A stretch of DNA of 35,156 nt, from assembly GCA_003552565.1 (NCBI GenBank), contig PUNB01000122.1, forward strand, positions 1 through 35,156, in the 5' to 3' direction. Under the pieces are notes generated by a model. The model was not told the DNA's origin, searched no databases, and saw only the letters and a program-made list of their open reading frames with translations. Both the position numbers and the translations under genes were made by a program. The DNA comes from Lentisphaerota bacterium. GTDB lineage: Bacteria; Verrucomicrobiota; Lentisphaeria; Oligosphaerales; PUNB01. Of this stretch, positions 197 to 23,356 are shown one piece after another (position 1 is the first letter of the stretch; each line of letters opens with the position of its first letter).

Positions 197-2635
197 TCAC
201 TTATCCTTTTGTGAGTTTGAATAAGGATTGAGCAGGTCTTTCGACTGTCCTTGTTCAAGCGTGTGAATTTGGCCTTCACAGCCGATTCTTATAGGAGGGC
301 AGGGGCCCGAGTCCAATGAGACGGTCAGTTTTTGATGATTGACTAGGATTGCCACCCAGTGACCGCGATAATGAATTTTCAACTTGATTTCCCTGACTTC
401 TTTCGGCAGCATCGGATTCAGCCACAGTATATTGTTTCGCAGCTCCAGGCCGCTGTAGCAGCGCAGCACCAGATCGACTGTGCCTGCCATGGCGCCCAGG
501 TGTATGCCTTCACTGGTGGTGCCCCCCTGCACATCGGCCAGGTCGCTTACCAAAACGTTGCCGAACAGATCCCAGGAACGTTCCCTGTCGGAGCGGGCCT
601 CGACCCAGGAGTGAACCAGATTGCTCAGAGTCGAGCCATGAGAGGTGCGCCGCTGGTAATATTCGATGTTACGGGGAATCATTTCCGGGGTGAATTCGTA
701 CCCCATAAAACTAAACAGTTTTTTTATCTGTTCAGAGGAAAAGAGATAGAAAAGCATTAGAACATCGGCTTGTTTGCTGGCTTTGTAGCGATTGATGTCA
801 TCGCCTTCTTTTTCCAGAATCCGGTCCAGGCGCTGAATGTCTCCGTGCTGCCGGCGCAGTTCTTCCCAGTTCAGTTCTTCCAGTTCTTCATAGCCTTCAA
901 ACTGGCTGATGATCCCCTGGTTATGGAAAGGTATGAACATTTTGCGGCTGATATCCTGCCAGCGGGTGATCTGCTCTTGATCGATTTTCAATTTTTGCAA
1001 GAGAGTTTCTTTACGGGTTGGGCAGAGCAGATTAAGAATGCCGCCGGCGAGCTGCAGACACCAGGCGGCCATGACATTGGTGTAGGCGTTGTTGTTGAGT
1101 CCAGGTTCGTCGTTGTCGGGGTAACCAGTGTGGAATTCGTCCGGGCCGGCCACTCCGCGTATTTCATAACGGCCTTTTTCGGGGTTGAATACGGCGGCAC
1201 TGGCCCAGAACTGGGCAATGCTGAGGACCATTTCAGCTCCTGCAACCGCCATGAATTCAGTATCGTTGGTGTTTTGGTAGTAACGCCAGATATTATGGAC
1301 GATAGCGGCGTTTATATGTCTTTGTTTATAGGTATGATCCGGTACCCAGCGGCCGGACTTGGGGTTTAAATGCACGGTTTGGCTTTCCTCCCGGCCGTCG
1401 CTGCCGCTCTGCCAGGGGTACATGGCACCTTCCAGCCCTTCTTGACGGGCCGCCCAACGCGCTTCGGGAAGGCGGCGGTAGCGATACATCAACAGGGAGC
1501 GGGTGAGGTTCGGCATATGCATGTTGATGACTGGGAAGATAAACAGTTCATCCCAGAAGATGTGGCCGCGATAGGCCTCTCCATGCAAGCCTCTGGCGGG
1601 CACCCCGGCATCCAGATCAATTGAATGCGTGGAAGTGGTTTGCAGTAAATGAAATATGTGGAGCCGCAGAATCATCTGCTCCTGGCTGGCTTCGCCTGTT
1701 TTCAACTGGATATCACAGGTTCGCCAGTAACGCTGCCAAGCCTGTTTATGAGTGTCGAGCAATTCTTCAAAATCGCCGGCGCGGAAAACTTTGCTGTTCG
1801 CCGCCAGCCCCGGCTCACTGATCGCCCGGTCGGAACCGCAATAGAGGGCGCTGATTTTTTCTATCTTCACAGAATGTCCTTCCTCAACTTCAAAATATAT
1901 ATCCTGACCGATATATCCATTCTCTTGCAGCAGCTGCCGCGATTCATCAACCTGTCGGCTGTTATGCATGATTCGGGTGCGAATTGTCTGTGCTAAATCC
2001 AGTCGGGATTGATTGGTGGTGCAGCGTAAAAGCAGGATATCAGGGGTGAGCTGACATGTCTCCAAAGGTTCCAGATGCTTTGTTTCCAGTTTACGGTAGC
2101 GAGTCACTCCAAGGTTTTCCACCTGTCCGTCGATGGCGGAACGTACGATTATCGGCTCAGACCAGTTAACCGGGAGCAGTTGCCATTCCATGGCGGCCAA
2201 ATATGCGTCCGCCATGTGGACTATGCGGCGAGTTGTCAGTTTTGTTTCCCGTTTTCCCTGGTCGCGGAAATGTAGATAATAAGAAAGTATGCCGTTTTGA
2301 ATGTCGAGGGTCTGACGAAAGTCCAGCCATTCAACCTGATTGAAGTCCAGCCATTCTCCATTCTCCGGTTTGAAGTTCAGACACAGCCAGTTAGGCAGAT
2401 TCACCAGGTCTTCGTTTTCTATCTGACGGCCGGCGACAGTGCTTGTCCGCCGGTTGTAGCCGCCGTGCAGGTAAGTGCCGGGATAATGGATGTCATCCGC
2501 TTTGGCGCCGGCGAATGCGCCGCGGGTGGCGAAACGGCCGTTCCCTAGGGTGCATAGAGCTTCCCGATGCTGTTGCTGCTTCGGCTCCCAGCCTTGATAT
2601 TCCAGGCACCAGGAGGACATTTCAGGCATATTCAT
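197..2635 (-). CDS. Glycoside hydrolase family 65 (trehalose/maltose/kojibiose phosphorylase-like)
   Basis: 812 aa; GH65 motifs EALCTLGNG, ARGLHGEAYRGHIFWDE, GPDEFH, KQADVLML, HGSTLS, EGIHLGAMAG; no N-terminal HAD/beta-PGM domain. Confidence 0.95.
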   Translation of the reverse strand: MNMPEMSSWCLEYQGWEPKQQQHREALCTLGNGRFATRGAFAGAKADDIHYPGTYLHGGYNRRTSTVAGRQIENEDLVNLPNWLCLNFKPENGEWLDFNQVEWLDFRQTLDIQNGILSYYLHFRDQGKRETKLTTRRIVHMADAYLAAMEWQLLPVNWSEPIIVRSAIDGQVENLGVTRYRKLETKHLEPLETCQLTPDILLLRCTTNQSRLDLAQTIRTRIMHNSRQVDESRQLLQENGYIGQDIYFEVEEGHSVKIEKISALYCGSDRAISEPGLAANSKVFRAGDFEELLDTHKQAWQRYWRTCDIQLKTGEASQEQMILRLHIFHLLQTTSTHSIDLDAGVPARGLHGEAYRGHIFWDELFIFPVINMHMPNLTRSLLMYRYRRLPEARWAARQEGLEGAMYPWQSGSDGREESQTVHLNPKSGRWVPDHTYKQRHINAAIVHNIWRYYQNTNDTEFMAVAGAEMVLSIAQFWASAAVFNPEKGRYEIRGVAGPDEFHTGYPDNDEPGLNNNAYTNVMAAWCLQLAGGILNLLCPTRKETLLQKLKIDQEQITRWQDISRKMFIPFHNQGIISQFEGYEELEELNWEELRRQHGDIQRLDRILEKEGDDINRYKASKQADVLMLFYLFSSEQIKKLFSFMGYEFTPEMIPRNIEYYQRRTSHGSTLSNLVHSWVEARSDRERSWDLFGNVLVSDLADVQGGTTSEGIHLGAMAGTVDLVLRCYSGLELRNNILWLNPMLPKEVREIKLKIHYRGHWVAILVNHQKLTVSLDSGPCPPIRIGCEGQIHTLEQGQSKDLLNPYSNSQKDK

Positions 2636-2674
2636 AATGCTTTCTCCTTGTTTTCGGTCAAGAAACGAAATCTA

Positions 2675-2835
2675 TTTGCCTCGTCAGCAGAATTTGTGGG
2701 TACATTGTGGTCGTCTTTCATACCCAATACCGACGAAGCAGGTGGTTTAAGCGTAACCAACTAAGGGTGGGCTCAAGTGTTCGATGAATTGCGGGATTAA
2801 GTGTCATGGTCTCCACGCCTCTCTTCTAAGCACTT
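2675..2835 (-). repeat. ~150-160 bp intergenic repeat with conserved hairpin, copy 1
   Basis: Reverse complement aligns to 26585-26731 (shared tttgcctcgtcagc, cccaataccgacgaagca, gcgggattaagtgtcatg, ctccacgc, tctcttctaa). Confidence 0.85.
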
Positions 2836-2854
2836 CAGCTCCCTCGCAAACATG

Positions 2855-3838
2855 CTAGACCACATCCAGTACTATGGACAGCCAAAAGGGGATCGTCAGC
2901 AGGCAGCAGATATGAGTAAGCATGACACTGGCGCTGGCGAACTCCACATCCGCCTTGAAAATTTCACTGACGGCCACCGTGTTGACCGCCGAGGGCATGA
3001 CCGCGACCAGAAACAGGATCATGGCGATGTTGCCCGGTATCGGCAGCCATACTATCCAGAAGAGCGCGATTGCCGGCACCAGCAGCAGTCGTACAAAGGC
3101 CACGCCCCATTGTCGCCAGTGAAACATCTGCGATGGTCGCAGATCGGCGATGCGGCTTCCGGCTATTATCATGGCCAAAGGGATGGTAGCGGCGCCGAAC
3201 ATGCTGAAGGCTTCCAGCAGCGCTTCCCATAAAGAGAGCAATAACTCTTGACCGCCGTCGATAAAGGAAATGCTGGAGGACAATGGCGGGATAATCGCGT
3301 CTCTTACTGTGACCGCCGCTAAAGCAACAACAATGGCGATAATCGGCGGCGAGTTCAACTGGCGCAGTGACCCCAGGGAGAGGCGGGTTTGGTTTAGAGA
3401 GAACACCCCTAAGGACCACATGGCGACCTCGCTGCCGAGAGTGGAAAGCACCACTTTCGCCAGGCCGATCTCTCCCCAGTAAAAATAGGCCAGAGGCATC
3501 ACCAGAAAAGAGTAGTTGTTGATTGTGGATTGAAAATGAAACGCTCGACCCTGAGGGGAAGAACGCCCGCCGTAAAGACTGATGCAGAGCCAGCCGATAA
3601 TGAAACCGGTGGCCATGATCATGAAGGCGCCGACTGGCAGAAGCCATTTCTCTCTTAAAGAAGACAGAGTGAAATTGGTGACAATGGTGCTGAAAATAAG
3701 AGCCGGATAGATGAAGTTAATCAACAAGCGCGCCATTTTGGCGGTCGCGGCACTGTCTATGACCAGTCTTTTGCGGGCGGTCCAGCCGAGGACGATCATG
3801 AGGAAAACCGCGCATAAACGGAGGAAAACAGCTGTCAA
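2855..3838 (-). CDS. AEC (auxin efflux carrier / malate permease) family transporter
   Basis: 327 aa, about 10 hydrophobic segments; PALIF, NNYSFLVMP, IPLAMIIAG, AVMPSA motifs; TTG start. Confidence 0.9.
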   Translation of the reverse strand: MTAVFLRLCAVFLMIVLGWTARKRLVIDSAATAKMARLLINFIYPALIFSTIVTNFTLSSLREKWLLPVGAFMIMATGFIIGWLCISLYGGRSSPQGRAFHFQSTINNYSFLVMPLAYFYWGEIGLAKVVLSTLGSEVAMWSLGVFSLNQTRLSLGSLRQLNSPPIIAIVVALAAVTVRDAIIPPLSSSISFIDGGQELLLSLWEALLEAFSMFGAATIPLAMIIAGSRIADLRPSQMFHWRQWGVAFVRLLLVPAIALFWIVWLPIPGNIAMILFLVAVMPSAVNTVAVSEIFKADVEFASASVMLTHICCLLTIPFWLSIVLDVV

Positions 3839-6018: not shown

Positions 6019-6176
6019 CTAGACCCCGTCCGAAAAGGGCTCCCGCTTTTTTCGGCGATCTTCCGGTTTTCCGAGGAAAACCGTTAGCTTACGGCTAGCG
6101 ATTTCCCTCGGAAAACCGAAATTTCATCCGAAACAAGCGGGAGCATGGGTGCGATACCTTTCCGGGGTCAGACTAA
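6019..6176. mobile_element. MITE-like element, interior type A
   Basis: Starts CTAG-ACCCCGTCCGAAAAGG, degenerate inverted end cctttccgg; long internal hairpin ctcccgctt...aagcgggag; interior matches 23108-23225 in reverse. Confidence 0.8.
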
Positions 6177-7212: not shown

Positions 7213-7264
7213 AAGGTTTCAGCAGCACAAAAGCAGGTGCTAACCCTTTCCGCACGGGGTTTAA
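7213..7264. mobile_element. Truncated MITE-like element, interior type C (one end only)
   Basis: aaggtttcagcagcacaa...aaccctttccgcacggggt-TTAA resembles 12476-12524; terminal repeat abuts the TAA stop of the response regulator. Confidence 0.65.
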
Positions 7265-10579: not shown

Positions 10580-11776
10580 TTATCCTTTTTGCGCGTATTG
10601 ACGAAGAATTTCGGCTTTGTCGGTCTTTTCCCACGGGAACTGTTCCCTTCCGAAATGGCCGTAAGCCGCACTTTCCAGGAAGCTCCAGCCGTTGGCGGCG
10701 GGTTCGGTGAGTGCGAGATTGCTGATGATCGCCGCCGGGCGGAAATCAAAGATACCGCTTTCTTCCAGCAGGTGCTGCAATCTGTCTTCGGAAATGGAGG
10801 CCGTGCCGTAAGTATCAATATTGATGCTCAGCGGATGCGCCACGCCGATAGCGTAGGAAACCTGAATTTCACATTTTTCCGCCAGTCCCGCGGCGACCAC
10901 GTTCTTGGCCACATAACGGGCTTTGTAAGCAGCCGAACGGTCAACTTTCGAGGGGTCTTTGCCGGAAAAAGCACCGCCGCCGTGACAGCCGACGCCGCCG
11001 TATGTGTCAACAATTATCTTGCGACCGGTCAGGCCGGTATCGCCGTAAGGACCACCGACGACAAAACGTCCGGTCGGATTGACATAGTAGTTGACATCAT
11101 CAGTGAGGAATTCACTTGGTATAACATCAGCCGTCACCTCCCGAACCAGAGCTTCGAGCTGCTCGTCTTTCATTTCCGGAGTATGCTGATGCGACACCAC
11201 TACGGTTTCCACCTGTACCGGCTTGCCGTCTTCATAAAGGAAGGAGACCTGACTCTTCGAGTCCGGGCGCAGAAAATCGTAGGTTTTCGGATCATTATGG
11301 CGCAGTTTGGCCATTTTTTCAACTATCCGATGAGCGTATAGAACCGGAGCCGGCATCAGCTCTTTTGTCTCATTGCTGGCGTAACCGAACATCATGCCCT
11401 GGTCGCCGGCACCCTGCTCAGCGAATTTGCCGTCATCTTCATTAACGCCCTGGGCGATATCCGGGGATTGCGGATGCAGAGCCAGGAGAACTTTGCAGTC
11501 GTCGGCCGAGAAACCAATGTCCCGGTCAGTGTAACCAATGCGGCGGATGGTGTCCCGCACCACTTCTTCCCAGTTGACCTTGGCTCGGGTGGTGATTTCG
11601 CCGGAGACCATTACAAAGTCTGTGGTTACCAGGGTTTCACAGGCCACACGACTATTCGGGTCCTGCTGTAAGCAGGCATCCAGAATCGCGTCGGAAATCT
11701 GATCCGACACTTTGTCCGGATGTCCTTCTGAAACTGATTCGGAAGTGTAAATGTGTTTTTGGGTGATTTTACTCAT
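10580..11776 (-). CDS. metK: S-adenosylmethionine synthetase
   Basis: [47 protein letters not shown]. Confidence 0.98.
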
Positions 11777-11902: not shown

Positions 11903-12061
11903 ACGCAATCAATGATTTTTTTTTAATTAGCGCCAATTCGCGTCCATTGGCGGTTCAAAAGTGTAAACAGTTTCCATCTTTCACTGACGCATTACTGAAA
12001 ATGTTCAACTATAGGGGAAGTTTTGGATCATTATGATATATTAATTTTGTCAATCTACGAG

Positions 12062-12247
12062 CTAGACCCCGTCCGGAAAGGGGTAGTATGCCGAATTTGT
12101 GCTGAAAAAACCTTGTCTCGAACCTTGTCCCGAACCAAAATCCGATTGGTTTTAATGTTTTCATCCCAAATGGAATATGGTTCGGGACAAGGTTCGGGAC
12201 AAAGTTGAACTCAAAACACACAATACACCTTTCCGGATACCCTCGAG
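12062..12247. mobile_element. MITE-like element, interior type C (stack unit 1)
   Basis: CTAG-ACCCCGTCCGGAAAGG...CCTTTCCGGATACCCT-CGAG; internal inverted gaaccttgtcccgaacca / tggttcgggacaaggttc. Confidence 0.85.
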
Positions 12248-12434
12248 CTAGACCCTCCGCGAAAAGGGTTCGGAAACGAGATTAAGGCGAAAGATTAGGT
12301 CAAAAGATTAAGGGGCGCACCCGTTTTTCCCTAATCTTTCGTCATAATCTTTCGCCTTAAGTCAATTGGCCGTGAAACGCACAGCCACTTTCGAGCATGT
12401 GAGCTCCACAAAACCCTTTTCGTTTAGCCTCGAG
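12248..12434. mobile_element. MITE-like element, interior type B (stack unit 2)
   Basis: CTAG-ACCCTCCGCGAAAAGG...CCTTTTCGTTTAGCCT-CGAG; closely similar to 14319-14505 and to the reverse complement of 21855-22029. Confidence 0.9.
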
Positions 12435-12532
12435 CTAGAGGGTATGCGAAAAGGTATATTGTGTGTTTTCGAGACAAGGTTCTCGGCAGCACAATTTCCG
12501 CTCACAACCCTTTTCGCGGAGGGTCGAGCTAG
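12435..12532. mobile_element. MITE-like element, internally deleted type C, inverted relative to unit 1 (stack unit 3)
   Basis: CTAG-AGGGTATGCGAAAAGG-tatattgtgtgtttt...cgagacaaggtt...CCTTTTCGCGGAGGGT-CGAGCTAG; matches both ends of unit 1 reverse complement. Confidence 0.85.
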
Positions 12533-12598: not shown

Positions 12599-13444
12599 TT
12601 GCACAATCAACAAGACAGTCAATTAACCACCAGATCTTTCAGAAACCGGCTATGGCAGGGCAGATTTCTTTCCCATTCATCAATTCTACAATGGCTGCTG
12701 GATGGAGGCGATCCGATGATTCTGGGCACCGGCAACGGGGCGGTGCTGAAAGTGGAGGGAGACGGCCTTTGCATGCGTCTGGACAGTGTTGGGGAAAGCC
12801 GAGTCGCTCTGTCCCGCCCCTTGTTTTTCAAACGGCATTGCCGAGCCGGCAGTATCGCCTGGTGCAAAAGAGCTGTGGGCTGGCACGGTGCGGTCTGGAT
12901 GTGGCAGGCGGCCTGGAAAATGCGGCGGCTGAATATACCCGCACCTGAACCGAATGGTTACTTGGATCCGACTTTTCAAAATCCTGGCGCCTGCAGTTTT
13001 TTCTGGAGCGAATGGGTCGAGCCGGCTTTGACTCTTCGGCAAATGGCCGAAGCTCCGAAGACTCGCGACCAAGTGATAAACAGCCAGAAACTGCCGATAC
13101 AAGCGGGGGATATTCTGGCCCGCCTGCATAATCATGGACTATACCACCGTGACACCAGCTGGAAAAACTTCCTGCTCAACCCGGAAACAGAACAACTGCT
13201 GCTGGTCGATATAGACGGAGTGAACAGAGGCGGCATCCGCCCCGAGACGGCGGCCGTCCGGGACATAGCCCGTTTTTTGACTGACGCGGTAATCAGCGAA
13301 GCCGATGCCTCCTGGATGCAACTGCTGCTGACGCATTACGCGACATGCCGGCAAATCCCCTTAAGTAAAATAAAATCCCCGCTTGAAGAAAAACTCAATC
13401 AATTCCTGGGACGTAAAGGCTGGTATAATGAACAGGAAAGATAA
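12599..13444 (+). CDS. Lipopolysaccharide kinase (Kdo/WaaP/InaA) family protein
   Basis: IPAPEP, LHNHGLYHRDTSWKNFL, LVDIDG, RDIARF; start uncertain (TTG 12599 or ATG 12716). Confidence 0.75.
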   Translation: MHNQQDSQLTTRSFRNRLWQGRFLSHSSILQWLLDGGDPMILGTGNGAVLKVEGDGLCMRLDSVGESRVALSRPLFFKRHCRAGSIAWCKRAVGWHGAVWMWQAAWKMRRLNIPAPEPNGYLDPTFQNPGACSFFWSEWVEPALTLRQMAEAPKTRDQVINSQKLPIQAGDILARLHNHGLYHRDTSWKNFLLNPETEQLLLVDIDGVNRGGIRPETAAVRDIARFLTDAVISEADASWMQLLLTHYATCRQIPLSKIKSPLEEKLNQFLGRKGWYNEQER

Positions 13445-13446
13445 AT

Positions 13447-14277
13447 ATGCCTGAATTGCCGGAAGTGGAAACGATTCGAACCGCTCTTGAGCTGCAGCTG
13501 CGAGGTCAGAAAATCACCGAAGTGACGGTGCAAAATCAAAATTTACGCCGGCCGGTGGATGAAAAAGCCCTGCGGGAGTGCTGTCGCGGAAAATCCCTGG
13601 AGCAAGTCAACCGCCGGGGCAAATACCTTATTTTCGGATTTACAGAAGATAATTATATAGTTGCCCATTTGGGCATGACCGGCGGCTTCCGAATCAGCTC
13701 CGCTGATATCCCCCTGGAAAAACACGAACATGTGGAATGGCTGCTGACTGACGGCCGCTCCCTTCGTTATCATGATCCCCGGCGCTTCGGATGTATTGTC
13801 TGCACCGAATCTTCACCCATCCCAGGCAGTTGGCCGCTGCCGAAACTGGGCCCCGAGCCGCTTTCCGATGCATTTACCGTCGAGTATTTGTACAAAACCT
13901 TTAAGAGACATAAAAAACCGGTCAAAAACCTGCTTATGGAACAACAGACGGCCGCCGGCATGGGCAATATTTACGCCAGTGAGGCGTTGTTTAGAGCCGG
14001 AATAGATCCCCGCAGAAGCGCCCATAGAATCAGCAAAAAGCGCTGTCAGCAACTGCAGGAAGCTATCCGCGCAGTTCTGACTGACGCCATCACCTGCGGC
14101 GGAACCACCATCAGCGACTACCGCTCCCTGGACGGAATGGAAGGGGATTTCGCCGTCTGCCTGGATGTTTACGGGAAGGAAAACCGCCCTTGCCCTCGCT
14201 GTGGAGCGGCTTATACAATTAAACGCGCGACACTCGGCGGCAGAAGCACCTTTTACTGTTCCGGGTGTCAGCACTAG
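13447..14277 (+). CDS. mutM: Formamidopyrimidine-DNA glycosylase (Fpg)
   Basis: MPELPEVET, RRGKYL, HLGMTG, DPRRFG, GNIYASEALF, C-terminal CPRC...CSGCQ zinc finger. Confidence 0.98.
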   Translation: MPELPEVETIRTALELQLRGQKITEVTVQNQNLRRPVDEKALRECCRGKSLEQVNRRGKYLIFGFTEDNYIVAHLGMTGGFRISSADIPLEKHEHVEWLLTDGRSLRYHDPRRFGCIVCTESSPIPGSWPLPKLGPEPLSDAFTVEYLYKTFKRHKKPVKNLLMEQQTAAGMGNIYASEALFRAGIDPRRSAHRISKKRCQQLQEAIRAVLTDAITCGGTTISDYRSLDGMEGDFAVCLDVYGKENRPCPRCGAAYTIKRATLGGRSTFYCSGCQH

Positions 14278-14318: not shown

Positions 14319-14505
14319 CTAGACCCCATGCGGAAAGGGTTCGGAAACGAGATTAAGACGAAAGGTTAGGGCAAAAGGTTAAGGGGCGCACCCGTTCTTC
14401 CCTAATCTTTCGTCATAATCTTTCGCCTTAATCCAATTGGGCGTGGAACGCACAGCCACTTTCGAGCTTGTGAACTCCAAAAAACCCTTTTCGCATAACC
14501 TCTAG
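14319..14505. mobile_element. MITE-like element, interior type B
   Basis: CTAG-ACCCCATGCGGAAAGG...CCTTTTCGCATAACCT-CTAG; followed by an orphan terminal repeat gaccctccgcgaaaagg at about 14511-14527. Confidence 0.9.
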
Positions 14506-14683
14506 TCTCTGACCCTCCGCGAAAAGGTGTTTGCGGTCTATGCACGCACAAGAAAGACGCAATTAAAACTTTGTTCGCATTTATTTTGTTTATGTTATAT
14601 ATTATTGCTTGTTACCTGAATGCGCTAAAAAATTGGCGAAACGAAAGTTTTTCAGGATATTTTGTTGAAAGGTTTCCGGCGCT

Positions 14684-21854: not shown

Positions 21855-22029
21855 CTAGACCCTATGCGAAAAGGATCTTGTGGAGCTCTCAAGCTCGAAA
21901 GTGACTGCGCGTTCCACGGCCAATTGGATTAAGGCGAAAGATTGTGACGAAAGATTAGGGGGAGAACGGGTGCGCTCCTTAATCTTTCGCCTTAATCTCG
22001 TTTCCGACCCCTTTCCGGACGGAGTCTAG
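21855..22029. mobile_element. MITE-like element, interior type B (reverse orientation)
   Basis: CTAG-ACCCTATGCGAAAAGG...CCTTTCCGGACGGAGT-CTAG; right CTAG contains the TAG stop of the upstream gene; about one GATTA unit shorter than the other B copies. Confidence 0.9.
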
Positions 22030-23107: not shown

Positions 23108-23356
23108 TTAGACCCTATGCGAAAAGGTATCGCACCCATGCTCCCGCTTGTTTCGGATGAGATTTCGGTTTTCCTCGGAAAACCGGAAGATCGCCGAAAC
23201 AAGCGGGAGCCTTATCGGGTAGGGGTGCGGCGGGGCGTCTCCGGTTTTTATGCCGCAAGTCATTAGCGCTGAGGCTGGTAACTGACGGAACAAAAACCGG
23301 ATCAGACCTGCCGGCGCTCCCAACAAGGGCGTGAGACCTTTTCGCATAAGCTCGAG
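23108..23356. mobile_element. Composite MITE-like element (type A module plus second hairpin module)
   Basis: TTAG-ACCCTATGCGAAAAGG...CCTTTTCGCATAAGCT-CGAG; first part is the reverse complement of the 6019 element minus 35 bp; second part has a ccggttttt...aaaaaccgg hairpin. Confidence 0.85.

Follow-up and report, generated by a model that had tools for sequence, protein, structure and literature searches.

How four identical copies of an 8-bp sequence, CGAGCTAG, came to alternate with three different inverted-repeat elements in the intergenic region between the divergent genes metK and a kinase-like reading frame is the question raised by the window analysed here, a stretch of 35,156 nucleotides that constitutes contig C268 of the genome (G000; an assembly of 2.09 Mb in 275 contigs, with 52% G+C and 86% completeness). 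The copies start at 12058, 12244, 12431 and 12525, with spacings of 186, 187 and 94 bp, which agrees with the preliminary description of the locus. The two strands of the window contain no further copy; 0.52 would be expected, and none of 100 dinucleotide shuffles reaches four. Judging from sequence comparison, the stack was probably formed by three separate MITE insertions into one 6-bp target, GAGCTA, a reading to which we assign a probability of about 0.75. A target-specific MITE/IS family normally behaves in this way, and the phenomenon is encountered at about two dozen sites in the genome.

Each interval between the repeats had been described as holding one complete inverted-repeat element (type C, type B, and a deleted and inverted type C), and both the terminal repeats and the copies elsewhere in the genome bear this out. 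The first CGAGCTAG (12058–12065) is composed of a native flanking C at 12058, the first copy of the target duplication, GAGCTA, at 12059–12064, and a G at 12065 that is the tip of unit 1. Unit 1 (12065–12244, including the terminal G and C) is a 180-bp MITE-like element of type C with an ACCCC-type left end, an AGGGT-type right end, and a central hairpin at 12109–12206 with 41-nt arms. The second GAGCTA (12245–12250) is followed by unit 2 (12251–12431), a 181-bp MITE-like element of type B with a central hairpin at 12282–12360 and 32-nt arms, and the third (12432–12437) by unit 3 (12438–12525), an 88-bp type-C-like element that is inverted relative to unit 1 and internally deleted, such that the central hairpin is gone. 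The fourth GAGCTA occupies positions 12526–12531, and is bordered by a native G at 12532. The leading C and trailing G of the two inner CGAGCTAG copies are hence element termini, while the outermost C and G (12058 and 12532) belong to the native flank. The ~17-nt terminal inverted repeats of the family are present in all three units, each of which has GAGCTA on both sides.

The genome contains 15 near-full-length copies of type C and 25 of type B. The copy nearest to unit 1 is located on contig C91 (95.9% identity over 170 bp), and that nearest to unit 2 on C92 (94.2% over 171 bp). In unit 3, bases 1–31 match the right end of unit 1 at 90% identity, and bases 30–86 match copies on C153 and C246 at 98% (98.2% over 57 nt for C153). 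Since the nearest relative of each unit resides on another contig, the stack is not a local duplication.

Domain matches confirm the genes between which the stack had been placed. The S-adenosylmethionine synthetase gene metK (10580–11776, minus strand) is recognised by three S-AdoMet synthetase domains (E 1.8e-63 to 4.9e-42), and begins 281 bp away from the stack. On the opposite side, just 66 bp separate the stack from a Kdo/WaaP-family kinase-like open reading frame with a TTG start (12599–13444, plus strand; PF06293, E 6.8e-05), which is followed by mutM for formamidopyrimidine-DNA glycosylase (13447–14277, plus strand). The whole stack is predicted to fold strongly, at –133.5 kcal/mol with a z-score of –15.6. 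The suggestion that units 1 and 3 fold back around unit 2 therefore stands as a prediction, but the shared terminal inverted repeats alone explain it.

The four identical repeats had been interpreted as a regenerated target with a duplication length of its own; the duplication is supported, but the duplicated part is the central 6 bp and not the whole 8-mer. The flanks of 80 paired elements, for which both ends are recognised, were compared with shuffled flanks. Left and right 8-mers agree at seven or more of eight positions in 28 of the 80 elements (shuffled mean 2.8, maximum 8), and the signal is confined to register 8, with an additional signal in register 4 that derives from the periodicity of CTAG. 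Perfect repeats of the central 6-mer are found in 24 elements (shuffled mean 1.22, maximum 5), and in these the element-proximal base is nearly invariant, being G on the left side in 24/24 and C on the right side in 23/24, whereas the distal base is C in only 16/24 and G in 14/24. The fixed proximal and variable distal bases identify G and C as the tips of the element, and the six bases between them as the duplication. For this reason, a 6-bp duplication with fixed tips was preferred to one of 8 bp, and the young IS copies in the related genome G033 (see below) agree with this choice. In 25 of the 80 elements, the flanking 6-mers agree at two or fewer of six positions.

From locus to locus the 8-mers vary (CAGGCTAG, CAACCTAG, CTAGGAAG and others), yet they agree within a locus. 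The four bases that precede CTAG at termini likewise vary widely across the genome (CTAA, ATAG, CTAG, CAGG, GTAA and others), which shows that CGAG is no constant component of the terminal repeat. CGAGCTAG itself occurs 11 times in the genome: four times in the stack, twice at junctions of two elements (C26 and C74), four times at unrelated positions, and once as the right flank of a solo element on C208, where the left flank is TGAGCTAG.

Two further copies in the window, noted earlier at 14319 and 21855, do have only CTAG in common on their two sides, and correspond to elements at 14322–14502 and 21858–22026. The former is a type-B copy with 90.7% identity to unit 2, unmatched flanking 6-mers, and the flanking 8-mers AGGGCTAG and CTAGTCTC. 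The latter is a solo type-B copy in inverted orientation, whose flanking 6-mers, TCGCTA and TAGGTA, agree at 4/6 positions (8-mers TTCGCTAG and CTAGGTAA). The CTAG beside these copies is the element tip plus three target bases rather than a 4-bp duplication, and the matching flanks have simply been lost. The duplication length is therefore the same in solo and stacked copies, and the proposal that it differs between them is not supported by the 6-bp statistics given above. The copy at 14322–14502 is followed by a junction of 10 bp, not 8, and by an apparently truncated element whose start is at 14512 and whose far end is not recognisable. Termini or elements of the same superfamily are also seen in the window at 6023, at 7260, and at 23112–23352, the last being a 241-bp pair with flanks that agree at 5/8 positions.

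Other stacks were searched for and found, and the one beside metK is not the special case that it was initially taken to be. Strict termini number 325 in the 2.09 Mb of the genome; the units of the stack, 88–181 bp in length, appear to have no credible coding capacity, though short open reading frames are listed across it. Ends that face each other within 60 bp occur at 31 places, and at 24 of these the ends are exactly 8 bp apart. When gaps of 2–14 bp are allowed, the 8-bp spacing accounts for 23/27 cases, and for 12/12 in G016, which belongs to the same order but a different family and measures 2.1 Mb. G016 has 128 terminus matches compared with 169 in the present genome, and other relatives have between 0 and 13; a search of genome contigs with a 19-nt terminus returned two records only.

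The stack is nevertheless exceptional in one respect, in that only in this window are all outer and inner 8-mers identical. At the 24 exact junctions, the outer 8-mers agree with the inner one on both sides in two cases, both of which are in the window, on one side in 11, and on neither side in 11; several junctions with no outer-flank match are situated close to contig ends. Since most junctions lack a two-sided match, either copies must often rearrange or recombine with one another, or some stacks arise by a different route. These hybrid flanks are the main fact that pure serial insertion alone does not explain. Flanks of this sort are left by recombination between copies or by intramolecular transposition, as is argued for ISRm22 in PMC1525189. 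In G016, three contigs (C131, C212 and C245) share the junction CTAACAAG as well as the arms around it, which may reflect either joint movement of two units as a dimer or duplication in the assembly.

The tetranucleotide CTAG is ~6.5-fold under-represented in the genome (1244 occurrences versus ~8118 expected), whereas AGCT is near expectation (7066 versus 8118), and a large share of the remaining CTAG is held by element borders. The core of the preferred target, TAGCTA, occurs 64 times in the assembly, as compared with 464 expected. Of nine exact CTAGCTAG sites, eight abut an element, as do 76 of the 121 sites that match it at 7/8 positions. The 6-mers at junctions are closer to the consensus than those that flank solo elements, with 4.76 versus 3.81 matching positions out of six, the solo set including false termini. 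Since every insertion doubles the target, and the element tips supply a C or a G of the palindromic context, the best remaining landing sites would be mostly beside resident elements. Scarcity of targets would accordingly be expected to drive stacking, a notion that agrees with these counts, and the transposase may in addition be drawn to its own ends. Contig ends fall within 250 bp of a strict terminus in 49 of 550 cases, which makes the repeats one cause of the fragmentation of the assembly, and longer arrays may be missing from it.

The ends of the superfamily recur in IS copies that encode a transposase in three same-order relatives. In G033, a complete genome, four or five copies of a ~1.89-kb IS with 97–98% mutual identity have one AGCCCGTCCGAAAAG end and one AGGTCATCCGAAAAG end; the flanks are ATAGAAAG/CTAGAAAG and ATAGCTAG/CTAGCTAT, and are unmatched in one copy. 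A single copy in G051 is flanked by ATAAGTAG and CTATGTAG. On contig C501 of G024, CTAGCTAG borders directly on an end that reads ACCCCGCGCGAAAAGG, and 76 nt further begins an open frame of 507 aa, which contains a DDE_Tnp_1 domain and runs off the contig. As in the MITEs, the young IS copies in the relatives display a 6–7-bp duplication and fixed G and C tips. The MITE ends come in two flavours, ACCC/AGCC and AGGK, which match, and are explained by, the two unlike ends of the IS. In the G033 IS (locus L035), a 542-aa open frame (1408–3036, plus strand) runs antisense to the 520-aa transposase frame (1426–2988, minus strand), and has no NCBIfam match; an antisense frame of 361 aa is present also at locus L028.

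With respect to classification, the best NCBIfam model for the transposases of the relatives is transpos_ISNCY_1, with scores of 234–245 bits that fall under its cut-off of 325, followed by models for IS1182 and IS5; JGI labels some relatives 'IS5 family transposase'. The mutual identity of these transposases is only 24–38%, and the nearest named elements are of the ISRm17 type, labelled ISNCY-like by NCBI, at 24–28% identity. Two annotated ISRm17 copies have ends in which a terminal G precedes TGCCCGTCC, and flanks (CTAGCTAG/CTAGCTAT in one copy and CTAGTCTAG/CTAGTCTAG in the other) that correspond to a 6–7-bp duplication. In both ISRm17 copies examined, on Sinorhizobium meliloti plasmids (L044 and L045), GT precedes the CTAG-rich target (GTCTAGTCTAG and GTCTAGCTAG), which, as in the present genome, is palindromic and of the CTAGCTAG type. 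When the ends of the MITEs, the IS copies of the relatives and ISRm17 are aligned, the terminal G is invariant, and the core CCCGTCCGRAAA is common to all. Our literature searches found no account of the target or duplication of ISDol1 and ISRm17, no paper that joins ISNCY, IS1182, IS1031 and MITEs, and nothing specific on stacked bacterial MITEs with a common duplication.

The present assembly has no match to the DDE_Tnp_1 domain, nor to rve and IS110 transposases, and the G024 transposase has no match in it, tblastn giving nothing better than E 0.7. Given that the genome is 86% complete, divided into 275 contigs, and that 49 of its 550 contig ends are near termini, the missing transposase is weak evidence. 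Four long terminus pairs were examined as candidates for autonomous copies and rejected, because the DNA between the ends encodes host proteins (a histidine kinase, Dxr, a UDP-glucose dehydrogenase and an epimerase). The enzyme that mobilises the elements in this organism would most plausibly be a transposase of the kind found in the relatives, as suggested by the common ends.

A mechanism can be proposed that would connect the repeats, the duplication statistics, the generality of the 8-bp junctions, and the ends held in common with the IS copies of relatives. At the start, C-GAGCTA-G would have stood as a native sequence in the metK–kinase intergenic region. The inserting elements belong to the superfamily that has hundreds of copies in the genome and ~17-nt ends consisting of a G followed by A[C/G][C/G]C..TCCGRAAAGG, which are also the ends of an IS of ~1.9–2.0 kb that encodes a DDE transposase of ~510–530 aa related to that of ISRm17. 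This transposase would make cuts staggered by 6 bp, and sometimes 7, in a TAGCTA-like target, with a preference for C-TAGCTA-G, and repair would double the six bases. The fixed G tip and the fixed C tip would then improve the surroundings of both duplicated copies to C......G, such that the next mobile element would be likely to enter one of these two regenerated copies, leaving element ends that abut across 8 bp (C, the six bases, and G). Three such events, which we regard as successive and independent, would give rise to the four identical CGAGCTAG copies. Repeated insertion into a target that is regenerated each time was part of the preliminary description, and it continues to be the best explanation for the four-fold identity.

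Several other origins have to be weighed against serial insertion. One is a mosaic of the NIME or BIME type, in which the palindromic joint (end, 8 bp, end) would be conserved, and site-specific or homologous recombination would shuffle modules with no transposition of single modules. The layout mirrors that of neisserial NIMEs, where a 20-bp dRS3 flanks RS elements in arrays according to PMC1797815, and both the many elements that lack matching flanks and the two-unit stacks, most of which agree on at most one side, are as recombination predicts. We consider such a mosaic unlikely, however, in view of how common solo elements with perfect 6-bp direct repeats are in unique DNA (24 of 80, versus 1.2 expected), and because the outer array borders do not have the outer arm of a complete joint, and the ends recur, together with the flanks, in IS copies that carry a transposase. 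Moreover, the IS110-family genes of two relatives have no such termini in their loci, and none of these genes is found in the present genome. Very improbable is the arrival or origin of the three units as one block, either as a composite element or as the product of local duplication. The outer ends do form a valid terminus pair between identical CGAGCTAG copies (12066–12524, 8/8), and the G016 junction that recurs on three contigs indicates that dimers may sometimes move jointly. Nevertheless, the 475-bp block is intact at no other locus in the genome, where the longest matches extend over 206–253 bp, where C adjoins B on C96 and C237 the junction 8-mers are other ones, and the units are closest to copies elsewhere (94–98% identity), not to their neighbours.

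REPs are linked to RAYT enzymes, and REPs with GTAG/CGTC tags have reportedly been studied. Elements of the REP/REPIN type spread by a RAYT (Y1/HUH) transposase could be envisaged on the basis of five Y1_Tnp matches in the genome (C197, C33, C237, C138 and C121) and the small hairpins (ACCCC...GGGGT) that the element ends can form. However, none of the three Y1_Tnp loci examined out of the five has MITE termini nearby, the ends match those of DDE-type IS, and a 6-bp duplication is observed here whereas target duplications are not known from RAYT/REP systems, which together render this origin even less probable than a block arrival. The least credible alternative, which we regard as highly improbable, is a dedicated recording or regulatory array, to which units would be added in order and with polarity, and which would itself serve a function such as that of a small RNA or the control of metK or the kinase gene. 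Its location between divergent genes, close to the kinase start, and the strong predicted fold would suit such a role. Against it stands the absence of leader-like asymmetry; all four target copies are identical, any of them could take a new element, and no mark of polarity is seen, which leaves the earlier idea of an ordered record of events unsupported. In addition, the same stacking is present at about two dozen unrelated sites, Rfam returned only below-threshold look-alikes of the microRNA-hairpin type for the stack, and sigma-70-like promoters are predicted in it 0 times versus 1.7 expected, the combined promoter and terminator scan giving nothing that exceeds shuffles.

Empty or partly filled versions of the site were sought in relatives and in metagenomes, and none was seen. 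The 40 relatives searched are family-level at best, with metK 78–79% identical, and synteny is lost beyond metK. The public runs that contain the locus are soda-lake and salt-lake metagenomes, seven of DNA and none of RNA, and four of them were examined. Their contigs break inside the repeats, and those of the flanks reach into unit 1 (to 12118) and unit 3 (from 12470–12490); among these contigs, which end inside the repeats, there is no joint that omits exactly one unit. A metagenome scan with the kinase protein detected no relative, and one with 26 nt of the left flank no exact match.

Repeated insertion into one regenerated target, if correctly deduced, would account for the dense repeat mosaics by which this assembly, and at least one other from the same order, is fragmented: DDE transposition of an ordinary kind, combined with a strong preference for a target that regenerates itself, would suffice, and no new machinery is needed. 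The ends, the 6-bp duplication and the CTAGCTAG-like target set out an undescribed MITE superfamily and tie it to the ISRm17-like transposase group, which should aid annotation of these uncultured soda-lake and salt-lake bacteria. With its four-fold identity, the site illustrates target re-use well in a natural setting, and offers a testable model for the growth of intergenic mosaic arrays. A more far-reaching and tentative idea, which we view as possible but doubtful, is that such arrays seed themselves: the tips would complete C-TAGCTA-G at both copies of the duplication and so convert one mediocre site into two better ones, and in a genome that purges CTAG, serial re-use of these sites would generate NIME- or BIME-like mosaics of unrelated MITE cores. 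If true, the origin of 'intergenic mosaic elements' would have a mechanism worked out in this lineage, down to the transposase family involved, and dRS3-type joints (arm-N8-arm) could correspond to abutted transposon ends around a common target duplication.

In PMC1797815, on the neisserial NIMEs, the 20-bp dRS3 (ATTCCC-N8-GGGAAT) is described as flanking more than 100 families of RS elements of 50–150 bp, a dRS3-specific recombinase is proposed, and NIMEs are stated not to have been observed outside Neisseria. To judge from that description, the NIMEs and the present stacks share arrays of varied 50–200-bp modules, and joints in which two inverted arms surround eight variable bases. The arms in the present genome are of the GGGT/ACCC type and do not conform to the dRS3 consensus, the outermost borders are devoid of the outer arm, and the eight bases consist of six duplicated target bases and two element tips. 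A DDE IS with the same ends exists in the present system, whereas transposition of NIMEs is not shown. The REP and BIME clusters of enterobacteria and pseudomonads are likewise high-copy intergenic palindromic mosaics, and REPs are targeted by insertion sequences, as related in PMC1525189 and PMC3184786. REPs measure 20–40 bp, in contrast to the units described here, which are roughly 90–180 bp and have terminal inverted repeats and a target duplication.

A further comparison is with MITEs derived from DDE insertion sequences. The size of 88–181 bp, the IS-type terminal inverted repeats, the target duplication, the hundreds of copies, the intergenic site and the central hairpins are all MITE features. 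Unlike MITEs in general, many unrelated cores are found under one pair of ends, either flavour of IS end can occupy either side of an element, and abutment across a common duplication is unusually frequent. Autonomous IS with the same ends are present in G024, G033 and G051, and were not found in the assembly analysed here. Finally, ISRm17 of S. meliloti and the IS of the relatives encode a single DDE_Tnp_1 transposase, whereas the elements in the stack are without any gene, and the transposases of the relatives are distant from that of ISRm17, as is evident from the identities and the sub-threshold ISNCY_1 scores given above. The similarities to ISRm17 extend to the DNA: the end motif, G followed by (A/T)(C/G)CCCGTCC....AAA, is alike, and so are the CTAG-rich palindromic target and the 6–7-bp duplication with a fixed terminal G and C.
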